A DNA stretch of 64,000 nucleotides from Escherichia coli (GTDB lineage: Bacteria; Pseudomonadota; Gammaproteobacteria; Enterobacterales; Enterobacteriaceae). Location of the stretch: assembly GCF_002854065.1 (NCBI RefSeq), contig NZ_CP024147.1; one strand, written 5' to 3'. The notes beneath the pieces were generated by a model. That model was not told the DNA's origin. It saw only the letters and a list, made by a program, of their open reading frames with translations, and did not search any database. The translations under genes and the position numbers were made by a program. Each line of letters opens with the position of its first letter. Within the stretch, counting starts at the first letter, position 1. Below are positions 49,105-52,655 of the stretch, piece by piece.

Positions 49105-50370
49105 TTAACCTGAACGACGACGATTACGCGGAGCGCCAGTACGACGCGGACCATTGCCTGTACGTGGGCGCGTGAGGCGCAGCGGTTTTGGCAGATCGGT
49201 CATCAATGCGTCCGGATTGTATTTGCTTACCGGAATTGAGTGACCAATATAGGTTTCAATAGCAGGCAAATTCAATGCATACTCTTCACACGCCAGGCTG
49301 ATAGAGTGACCGCTTGCGCCTGCGCGACCTGTGCGACCAATACGGTGAACGTAATCTTCACAGTCATCGGGTAAATCGTAGTTAAAGACGTGCGTCACTG
49401 CCGGAATATGCAAACCACGCGCGGCAACGTCGGTGGCAACCAGAATATCCAGATCGCCACGGGTAAATTCATCAAGAATACGCAGACGTTTTTTCTGCGC
49501 GACATCGCCTGTCAACAAACCGACACGATGACCATCTGCCGCCAGGTGGCCCCAGATCTCTTCACAACGGTGTTTGGTATTGGCGAAAATAATCGCTCTG
49601 TCTGGCCACTCTTCTTCGATCAGCGTTTGCAGCAAACGCATTTTTTCTTCGTTAGAAGGGTAGAAAAGCTCTTCTTTAATACGGTGGCCCGTTTTCTGTT
49701 CCGGTTCCACTTCAATATATTCGGCATTGTTCATCTGCTCGAACGCCAGTTCACGTACCCGGTACGAAAGCGTGGCGGAGAACAGCATGTTGAGGCGCTG
49801 GTTTGCAGGCGGCATACGGCGGAACAGCCAGCGGATATCTTTAATAAAGCCCAGATCGTACATGCGATCGGCTTCGTCCAGTACCACTACCTGAATGGCA
49901 CCGAGGTTAATGTGGTTCTGCTTGGCGTAGTCAATTAAACGACCCGTGGTGCCAATCAGAATGTCAACGCCGCTTTCCAGCACTTTCAGCTGTTTGTCGT
50001 AACCATCACCACCGTAAGCCAGACCCAGCTTCAGGCCGGTAGCTTCCGCCAGCGGTTCCGCATCGGCATGGATCTGCACGGCAAGTTCACGCGTCGGTGC
50101 CATAATTAAGGCACGCGGCTGATTCACCTTGCGATCGGCAATCGCAGGATGAGAGAGAAGATAATGAAACGTTGACGTAAGAAACGCCATCGTTTTCCCG
50201 GTACCGGTTTGCGCCTGCCCGGCTACGTCACGACCCGCCAGCGTCAGCGGAAGGGCCAGTGCCTGAATGGGCGTACAGTTATGAAACCCTTTTTTTTCAA
50301 GGGATTCTACAACCTTCGGATGCAGGGCGAAGTCGGAAAACTTCTGTTCTGTTAAATGTGTTTTGCTCAT
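49105..50370 (-). CDS. rhlB: DEAD-box RNA helicase RhlB (degradosome component)
   Basis: 421-aa ORF with Q-motif, Walker [13 protein letters not shown] box and Arg-rich C-terminal tail. Confidence 0.95.
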
Positions 50371-50500
50371 AGTGTGGTAGAATATCAGCTTACTATTGCT
50401 TTACGAAAGCGTATCCGGTGAAATAAAGTCAACCTTTAGTTGGTTAATGTTACACCAACAACGAAACCAACACGCCAGACTTATTCCTGTGGAGTTATAT

Positions 50501-50830
50501 ATGAGCGATAAAATTATTCACCTGACTGACGACAGTTTTGACACGGATGTACTCAAAGCGGACGGGGCGATCCTCGTCGATTTCTGGGCAGAGTGGTGCG
50601 GTCCGTGCAAAATGATCGCCCCGATTCTGGATGAAATCGCTGACGAATATCAGGGCAAACTGACCGTTGCAAAACTGAACATCGATCAAAACCCTGGCAC
50701 TGCGCCGAAATATGGCATCCGTGGTATCCCGACTCTGCTGCTGTTCAAAAACGGTGAAGTGGCGGCAACCAAAGTGGGCGCACTGTCTAAAGGTCAGTTG
50801 AAAGAGTTCCTCGACGCTAACCTGGCGTAA
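50501..50830 (+). CDS. trxA: Thioredoxin 1
   Basis: Active site WCGPC; start placed at [22 protein letters not shown] (109 aa), the ORF track extension of 35 codons is rejected. Confidence 0.97.
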
Positions 50831-50970
50831 GGGAATTTCATGTTCGGGTGCCCCGTCGCTAAAAACTGGACGCCCGGCGTGAGTCATGCTAACTTAGTGT
50901 TGACTTCGTATTAAACATACCTTATTAAGTTTGAATCTTGTAATTTCCAACGCTTCCCATTTTATCTTAA

Positions 50971-51072
50971 ATGCGAAGTGAACAGATTTCTGGCTCGTCA
51001 CTCAATCCGTCTTGTCGTTTCAGTTCTGCGTACTCTCCTGTGACCAGGCAGCGAAAAGACATGAGTCGATGA
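50971..51072 (+). CDS. rhoL: rho leader peptide
   Basis: 33-codon ORF MRSEQISGSSLNPSCRFSSAYSPVTRQRKDMSR in the rho 5' leader. Confidence 0.8.
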   Translation: MRSEQISGSSLNPSCRFSSAYSPVTRQRKDMSR

Positions 51073-51156
51073 CCGTAAACAGGCATGGATGATCCTGCCA
51101 TACCATTCACAACATTAAGTTCGAGATTTACCCCAAGTTTAAGAACTCACACCACT

Positions 51157-52416
51157 ATGAATCTTACCGAATTAAAGAATACGCCGGTTTCTGAGCTGAT
51201 CACTCTCGGCGAAAATATGGGGCTGGAAAACCTGGCTCGTATGCGTAAGCAGGACATTATTTTTGCCATCCTGAAGCAGCACGCAAAGAGTGGCGAAGAT
51301 ATCTTTGGTGATGGCGTACTGGAGATATTGCAGGATGGATTTGGTTTCCTCCGTTCCGCAGACAGCTCCTACCTCGCCGGTCCTGATGACATCTACGTTT
51401 CCCCTAGCCAAATCCGCCGTTTCAACCTCCGCACTGGTGATACCATCTCTGGTAAGATTCGCCCGCCGAAAGAAGGTGAACGCTATTTTGCGCTGCTGAA
51501 AGTTAACGAAGTTAACTTCGACAAACCTGAAAACGCCCGCAACAAAATCCTCTTTGAGAACTTAACCCCGCTGCACGCAAACTCTCGTCTGCGTATGGAA
51601 CGTGGTAACGGTTCTACTGAAGATTTAACCGCTCGCGTACTGGATCTGGCATCACCTATCGGTCGTGGTCAGCGTGGTCTGATTGTGGCACCGCCGAAAG
51701 CCGGTAAAACCATGCTGCTGCAGAACATTGCTCAGAGCATTGCTTACAACCACCCGGATTGTGTGCTGATGGTTCTGCTGATCGACGAACGTCCGGAAGA
51801 AGTAACCGAGATGCAGCGTCTGGTAAAAGGTGAAGTTGTTGCTTCTACCTTTGACGAACCCGCATCTCGCCACGTTCAGGTTGCGGAAATGGTGATCGAG
51901 AAGGCGAAACGCCTGGTTGAGCACAAGAAAGACGTTATCATTCTGCTCGACTCCATCACTCGTCTGGCGCGCGCTTACAACACCGTTGTTCCGGCGTCAG
52001 GTAAAGTGTTGACAGGTGGTGTGGACGCCAATGCCCTTCATCGTCCGAAACGCTTCTTTGGTGCGGCGCGTAACGTGGAAGAGGGCGGCAGCCTGACCAT
52101 TATCGCGACGGCGCTTATCGATACCGGTTCTAAAATGGACGAAGTTATTTACGAAGAGTTTAAAGGTACAGGCAACATGGAACTGCACCTCTCTCGTAAG
52201 ATCGCTGAAAAACGCGTCTTCCCGGCTATCGACTACAACCGTTCCGGTACCCGTAAAGAAGAGCTGCTCACGACTCAGGAAGAACTGCAGAAAATGTGGA
52301 TCCTGCGCAAAATCATTCACCCGATGGGCGAAATCGATGCAATGGAATTCCTCATTAATAAACTGGCAATGACCAAGACCAATGACGATTTCTTCGAAAT
52401 GATGAAACGCTCATAA
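51157..52416 (+). CDS. rho: Transcription termination factor Rho
   Basis: Start placed at [41 protein letters not shown] (419 aa); Walker A APPKAGKT. Confidence 0.98.
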
Positions 52417-52430
52417 ATTTGTCTTATGCC

Positions 52431-52465
52431 AAAAACGCCACGTGTTTACGTGGCGTTTTGCTTTT
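52431..52465 (+). terminator. Intrinsic terminator after rho
   Basis: Hairpin AAAACGCCACGTG TTTA CGTGGCGTTTT followed by a T-run. Confidence 0.85.
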
Positions 52466-52655
52466 ATATCTGTAATCTTAATGCCGCGCTGGCGATGTTA
52501 GGAAAATTCCTGGAATTTGCTGGCATGTTATGCACCTTGCATATCAAATGGTTAATTTTTGCATAGGGCTGGTGGGTTCGGAACGGACTTTCCCTTCTGA
52601 ATAAAGGTCTTCGTGGTTATACTTCTGCTAATAATTTTCTCTGAGAGCATGCATT

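Follow-up and report, generated by a model that had tools for sequence, protein, structure and literature searches.

Rho terminates a large share of the transcription units of Escherichia coli and silences foreign and antisense RNA, and the feedback loop which sets the Rho level belongs to central physiology. The attenuator in the leader of rho is already known, having been described for about forty years, and it is well documented for the exact sequence considered here. Several papers credit rho autoregulation to Barik 1985 and Matsumoto 1986, and the small RNA SraL is reported to counteract attenuation by Rho in the Salmonella rho leader (Silva et al. 2019, as presented in PMC6582626 and PMC12360218). 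The addition made by the present analysis is a modest one: the label 'leader peptide', carried by the short ORF of this leader, rhoL, probably names a frame which is incidental to a conserved regulatory RNA.

The window, i.e. the whole 64-kb stretch of DNA analysed, is E. coli chromosome with the gene order rhlB, trxA, rhoL, rho and wecA; trxA (+) and rhlB (-) lie upstream of the leader, and wecA lies downstream of rho (Table 1). RefSeq names the short ORF 'rho operon leader peptide RhoL'. Its 33-residue translation, MRSEQISGSSLNPSCRFSSAYSPVTRQRKDMSR, matches NCBIfam NF007433 (PRK09979) with 95.2 bits against a cut-off of 85, covering residues 1-33 of 33, and no Pfam domain was found in it. 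Its placement, on the same strand and between trxA and rho, is the layout of the RefSeq annotation of O157:H7 TR01 and of MG1655, where rhoL is b3782 at 3966231-3966332 and rho (b3783) runs from 3966417. The rho start codon is ATG 51157-51159, the protein begins MNLTELK, and the gap from rhoL to rho (51073-51156) measures exactly 84 nt. The locus is rhoL-rho, the leader of rho. The original prediction, made from the sequence alone, had given it this name, correctly in the light of b3782 and the NF007433 match, and its placing of a 33-codon ORF 84 bp before rho proved exact.

Of 5426 complete E. coli genomes, 5425 carry the rhoL annotation, and the 370 nt surrounding rhoL are matched at 95% identity or more in all 5425 genomes with the locus; the genomes closest to the window at rhoL are O157:H7 and O145 strains, with 100% identity over the 370 nt. 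Window positions are MG1655 coordinates minus 3915260. Between 50780 and 51629 a single base (50959) differs from MG1655, and since 50960-51629 is identical, published MG1655 data transfer directly to the window.

Table 1. Features of the trxA-rho region, in window coordinates.
Feature	Position	Strand	Details
trxA	50501-50830	+	5' neighbour of the rho leader
Putative rho promoter	50866-50895	+	-35-like TGGACG (50868-50873), 16-nt spacer, -10-like TAACTT (50890-50895)
rho 5' leader	50902-51156	+	between trxA and rho; untranslated except for the rhoL ORF; probable 5' end
rhoL ORF	50971-51072	+	ATG to TGA; 33 codons plus stop
Predicted long imperfect hairpin	50992-51074	+	encloses rhoL codons 8-33 and stop
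RNA 3' end within rhoL (+91)	51062	+	Term-seq, MG1655 3966322 (PMC7815308)
Small conserved hairpin GGCAUGG/CCUGCC	51082-51099	+	-8.4 kcal/mol
Candidate rut, C-rich/G-poor tract	51091-51168	+	C 0.295, G 0.103
rho coding sequence	51157-52416	+	419 aa plus stop; TIGR00767, 738 bits; RefSeq-annotated
Rho-dependent termination zone, early rho	51207-51244	+	3' end plus bicyclomycin-sensitive peak (PMC7815308)

In MG1655, where the sequence is identical, transcript ends fall in the late leader and at the beginning of rho, with read-through when Rho is inhibited or mutated. The Term-seq 3' end at MG1655 3966467 (window 51207, rho +50) has a bicyclomycin Rho score of 7.07 and is classed as Rho-dependent ('Yes'); its intrinsic-terminator score, 1.2, does not reach the threshold of 3 (PMC7815308, Adams et al. 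2021 supplements). The Rho termination region peaks at 3966504 (window 51244) with a Rho score of 7.8 (p 1.3e-215 with bicyclomycin), and reads downstream of this peak increase from 297 to 2386 under bicyclomycin, read-through in early rho being about 7-8-fold up on the drug (PMC7815308). In a rho R66S mutant, the occupancy of RNA polymerase in rho rises 12-fold relative to rhoL (PMC12121999). A scan for intrinsic terminators (hairpin plus T-run) in 50300-51400 found none. The original prediction had read the leader as an autoregulatory, Rho-dependent attenuator and had named a lack of leader read-through on Rho inhibition as evidence to the contrary; the published bicyclomycin scores of 7.07 and 7.8 record the opposite, and together with the 12-fold effect of R66S they establish the attenuation for this sequence.

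Relatives of the locus were drawn from 80 rho loci (one genome per species, by protein similarity) and from 64 metagenome loci collected by a DNA pattern made of two blocks of the leader core; the 52 metagenome leaders necessarily all have these two blocks unchanged, and the pattern misses diverged lineages. The rho leader is reportedly about 255 nt long (Matsumoto et al. 1986), and this length, together with promoter-like blocks showing 90% conservation or more across 60 Enterobacteriaceae leaders, places the probable transcription start near 50902. A strict consensus promoter scan gave no promoter at the rho leader. A second candidate, TTGACT (50901) with TATTAA (50924), was rejected, its -10 being unconserved. 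On the side of trxA (50858-50895, +), a hairpin lacking a T-run, CGGGTG...CGCCCG, precedes the published 3' ends at window 50882 and 50885, and because this hairpin overlaps the -35-like TGGACG, some sequence is common to the trxA end and to the start of rho transcription.

Compared with shuffled sequences, the leader folds somewhat more stably (z = -2.05). The long hairpin of Table 1 is a plausible model: the minimum free energy of 50995-51080 is -22.6 kcal/mol, and in the RNAalifold consensus 98% of cells are paired, with two pairs showing compensatory changes, not above shuffles, the sequence being too conserved for the structure to be testable by covariation. The small hairpin which follows gives no covariation information because its sequence is invariant, the 5' arm being part of the metagenome search pattern and invariant also in the seven genomes found through the Rho protein. 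A third consensus element is a possible pairing of AUUCA (51105-51109) with UGAAU (51158-51162), overlapping the UG of the rho start codon. No U tract follows the predicted leader hairpins. The 3' end at 51062 was recorded in two of three growth conditions, not in the one giving 3966467 (PMC7815308), and falls 2 nt beyond the inner helices of the long hairpin; it may well reflect exonuclease trimming of Rho-terminated RNA back to a stable stem. No Rfam 15 match was found in the rho leader, even at E up to 10 or at gathering thresholds, and the conserved enterobacterial rho leader has no Rfam family. The sole Rfam match within 36000-64000 is TrxA_thermometer (RF02773) in the trxA 5'UTR (50431-50530, +), with 78.8 bits and a gathering score of 58.

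A C-rich, G-poor composition of the leader RNA had been put forward as a check of the original prediction. It does not hold for rhoL itself, in which C and G are equal (0.245) and whose 78-nt windows stand at the 72.6th percentile for C-G, but it does hold for the spacer: ranked with every + strand window of 78 nt in the 64 kb, the tract 51091-51168 reaches the 99.4th percentile for C-G and falls at the 0.2nd for G. The whole leader (255 nt; C 0.247, G 0.169) reaches the 96.6th percentile for C-G among 255-nt windows. The tract begins 19 nt after the rhoL stop and sits 40-150 nt 5' of the published Rho-dependent ends at 51207-51244; covered by neither ORF, it fits best as the candidate rut, the loading site of Rho. 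By H-SELEX, a Rut peak of about 160 nt has been reported at the attenuator in the rho 5'UTR (PMC9499579).

Composition was also recorded beyond this leader. C exceeds G in the 80-140 nt ahead of the rho ATG in Vibrio, Pseudomonas and Alteromonadales, whose leaders are unalignable to that of E. coli; over about 140 nt upstream of rho, mean C-G at these loci is +0.11 to +0.19. By this comparison a rut-like leader appears to be widespread, and autoregulation perhaps is as well. The strongest C-rich, G-poor stretch of the region lies within rho itself (51351-51428, +; C 0.41, G 0.17; 99.9th percentile), about 200-270 nt into the ORF, and could act as an additional rut inside the gene; rho genes of other gamma-proteobacteria show the bias at the corresponding position, where it is inseparable from coding constraint because the protein is conserved there.

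As an ORF, rhoL is no longer than expected by chance. When the 326-nt region between trxA and rho was shuffled 5000 times with its dinucleotides preserved, 1937 of the shuffles (39%) held a complete ATG ORF of 33 codons or more, and overlapping ORFs of 21-47 codons occur at rhoL in all three forward frames and on the reverse strand. It is by its identity and conservation that the locus stands above chance, not by the length of the ORF. The start lacks a Shine-Dalgarno sequence, as the 20 nt 5' of the ATG give +1.9 kcal/mol against the anti-Shine-Dalgarno, compared with -5.9 for trxA. The 33 codons include no evident run for a single amino acid, and neither a conserved peptide motif nor a regulatory codon run is present in rhoL. 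Being of chance-level length, devoid of a Shine-Dalgarno and unconserved outside Escherichia, the ORF is in itself no evidence for attenuation.

The conservation of the region follows the RNA. In most of the gamma-proteobacteria sampled trxA lies 5' of rho, at a distance of 143-600 nt; the leader core is present in all seven Enterobacteriaceae genomes found through the Rho protein, and the proximal 80 nt or so of the leader are conserved as far as Yersinia, Photorhabdus and Acerihabitans. An ATG in frame at the rhoL start is found in 6 of the 60 distinct Enterobacteriaceae leaders, five of which are of the E. coli or E. albertii type and one of which is shortened by a frameshift. Two leaders of the 60 have an ATG one codon 5' of that start, 50 have no in-frame ATG from the upstream stop to the conserved core, and in 11 this interval holds no ATG, GTG or TTG whatever. 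The codon homologous to the rhoL start is mostly GCG or GAG in relatives, and in many of the 60 leaders a stop stands 10 codons ahead of the core. With indels in the rhoL frame (+1, -1, -2 and -5 nt) and altered stops, five or more distinct C-termini result. All sampled E. coli genomes, and E. albertii as well, have the ORF intact, at a divergence too low to show selection.

Two unrelated metagenome leaders, only about 80% identical to E. coli over the leader, carry independently an ORF of 33 codons in the same frame, which starts with an ATG one codon upstream and reads MRVKLIIPGLSLIPS... Three other leaders of the sample have lost the two stops that follow the rhoL frame, and in them it stays open without a break into rho, a potential long N-terminal extension of Rho if any upstream start is used.

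Rates of change give the same picture. Mean column variability is 0.081 in the rhoL core, 0.055 in the non-coding spacer and 0.20-0.28 further upstream; by codon position 1-3 of rhoL it is 0.045, 0.091 and 0.102, with no coding periodicity. Identity to E. coli in the seven genomes is 0.65-0.93 for rhoL, 0.75-1.00 for the spacer and 0.57-0.80 for four-fold degenerate sites of rho, the nucleotides of rhoL evolving more slowly than these sites. We infer from these comparisons that selection probably acts on the leader RNA (its sequence, the probable hairpin at 50992-51074 and the rut tract) and not on the RhoL peptide. rhoL would then be an Escherichia-specific frame laid over a conserved RNA, not required for the conserved mechanism, and in E. 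coli it may be weakly translated.

At the rho start, an in-frame ATG at 51085, 24 codons before the annotated one, leads ORF calling to 51085-52416 (443 aa). An N-terminal extension of Rho from this codon was rejected, since indels of 1-2 nt in relatives break the frame; the ATG is itself invariant in relatives and lies inside the small conserved hairpin. Pairing of the rho Shine-Dalgarno (51140-51156, +) is weak, -1.4 kcal/mol, although the protein is abundant, and the conserved A/U- and C-rich spacer may serve rho translation as well as Rho loading. After rho, an intrinsic terminator at 52432-52467 (+) consists of a 12-bp stem, AAAACGCCACGTGTTTACGTGGCGTTTT, then GCTTTTAT, and agrees with the published 3' end at MG1655 3967721 (window 52461).

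Taken as a whole, it is likely that the locus is a Rho-dependent transcriptional attenuator which provides negative feedback on Rho synthesis and in which the selected element is the leader RNA, not the peptide. Transcripts would begin near 50902, and Rho would load on unstructured C-rich, G-poor RNA, chiefly in the ribosome-free spacer 51091-51168, to catch up with the polymerase over the initial 50-90 nt of rho. A drop in Rho activity would let more polymerases through to rho, and more Rho would be made. Against this stands the reading of rhoL as a genuine regulatory uORF of Escherichia, whose translation would melt the hairpin 50992-51074 or shield part of the Rho loading site and so tune Rho output, translation capacity (e.g. 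in low Mg2+) setting the amount of Rho in a manner resembling tnaC, mgtL and toiL. In MG1655 a Ribo-RET initiation signal has been reported at the rhoL start, with a rise of at least 3-fold in low Mg2+ (PMC11429745), and because of this peak ribosomes probably initiate at rhoL in E. coli; no report of a detected RhoL peptide was found in the literature. The overlap of the ORF with the predicted hairpin, the position of its stop just ahead of the C-rich tract and its retention in all E. coli genomes and in E. albertii agree with such a role. However, we regard this role as unlikely, given that rhoL has a chance-level length and no Shine-Dalgarno, that its start codon is missing in 50 of 60 related leaders which retain the RNA sequence, that it has neither a conserved motif nor a regulatory codon run, and that a ribosome at its stop leaves most of 51091-51168 free; moreover, tetracycline does not significantly change RNA polymerase occupancy in rho (p = 0.1; PMC12121999). 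An evolutionary form of the idea, in which rhoL is a young, Escherichia-specific uORF which arose by the gain of an ATG over an older leader RNA and whose conditional translation opens the hairpin and retunes Rho autoregulation, appears rather unlikely to us; if true, global termination would be coupled to ribosome availability in Escherichia only.

Two further explanations move the function into trans. The 5' part of the leader, up to 51062, could form a stable RNA of about 160 nt which serves a separate purpose, for example by acting as a decoy for Rho or by base-pairing. The Term-seq end at 51062 is reproducible, with about 6200 reads in two growth conditions (PMC7815308), and lies just beyond a stable stem; the region is conserved at nucleotide level, and a multicopy rhoL clone weakened termination at an sRNA terminator, much as Rho inhibition does. 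Nevertheless, trimming of 3' ends to a stem is the usual fate of Rho-terminated transcripts, the multicopy effect is open to other explanations, no trans target is known, and neither an Rfam family nor a described sRNA was found for the region, which makes such an RNA very unlikely. A role of RhoL in the general stress response, for example through RpoS, may also be considered, since mutants with a transposon in rhoL or a deletion of it clustered with rpoS mutants and the activity of their gadB promoter dropped transiently (PMC11188689). That RhoL acts in trans as a functional small protein is nonetheless extremely improbable: the peptide is unconserved and has neither a Pfam domain nor a Shine-Dalgarno, and any lesion of rhoL also changes the rho leader in cis, where an IS2 insertion lowers Rho about 2.5-fold. 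The phenotypes of rhoL insertions and deletions are most simply explained as cis effects on rho.

With the classical leader-peptide attenuators trpL, hisL, leuL, pheL, thrL and ilvL, rhoL has in common only its annotation as a 'leader peptide' and its place within a 5' leader; attenuators of the trpL type rely on an intrinsic terminator, alternative hairpins and regulatory codon runs, whereas the rho leader is Rho-dependent, has no intrinsic terminator, and contains an ORF which is unconserved and lacks a ribosome binding site. The layout of tnaC-tnaA, mgtL-mgtA and toiL-topAI, that is, a short ORF, an untranslated C-rich spacer and Rho-dependent termination before or within the first gene, is shared. 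The ORFs of those systems have recognisable start sites and conserved peptides or key codons, and they sense signals by ribosome stalling; rhoL, unlike them, has no Shine-Dalgarno and no conserved peptide, and its start, frame and C-terminus vary. Tetracycline relieves the attenuation of topAI, but it has no significant effect on rho (PMC12121999).

A SraL (RyjA) pairing site in the E. coli leader was sought with sliding 25-nt duplexes and rejected, the best duplex (-21.8 kcal/mol) being no stronger than the mean best of shuffled leaders (-22.5 kcal/mol). An sRNA site could be shared with Salmonella because the leader core is highly conserved across Enterobacteriaceae. The SraL-regulated rho leader of Salmonella has Rho-dependent attenuation in common with that of E. 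coli, and with the rhoL-rho leader of E. coli K-12 (b3782/b3783) the window shares locus, sequence and gene order, without substantive difference.
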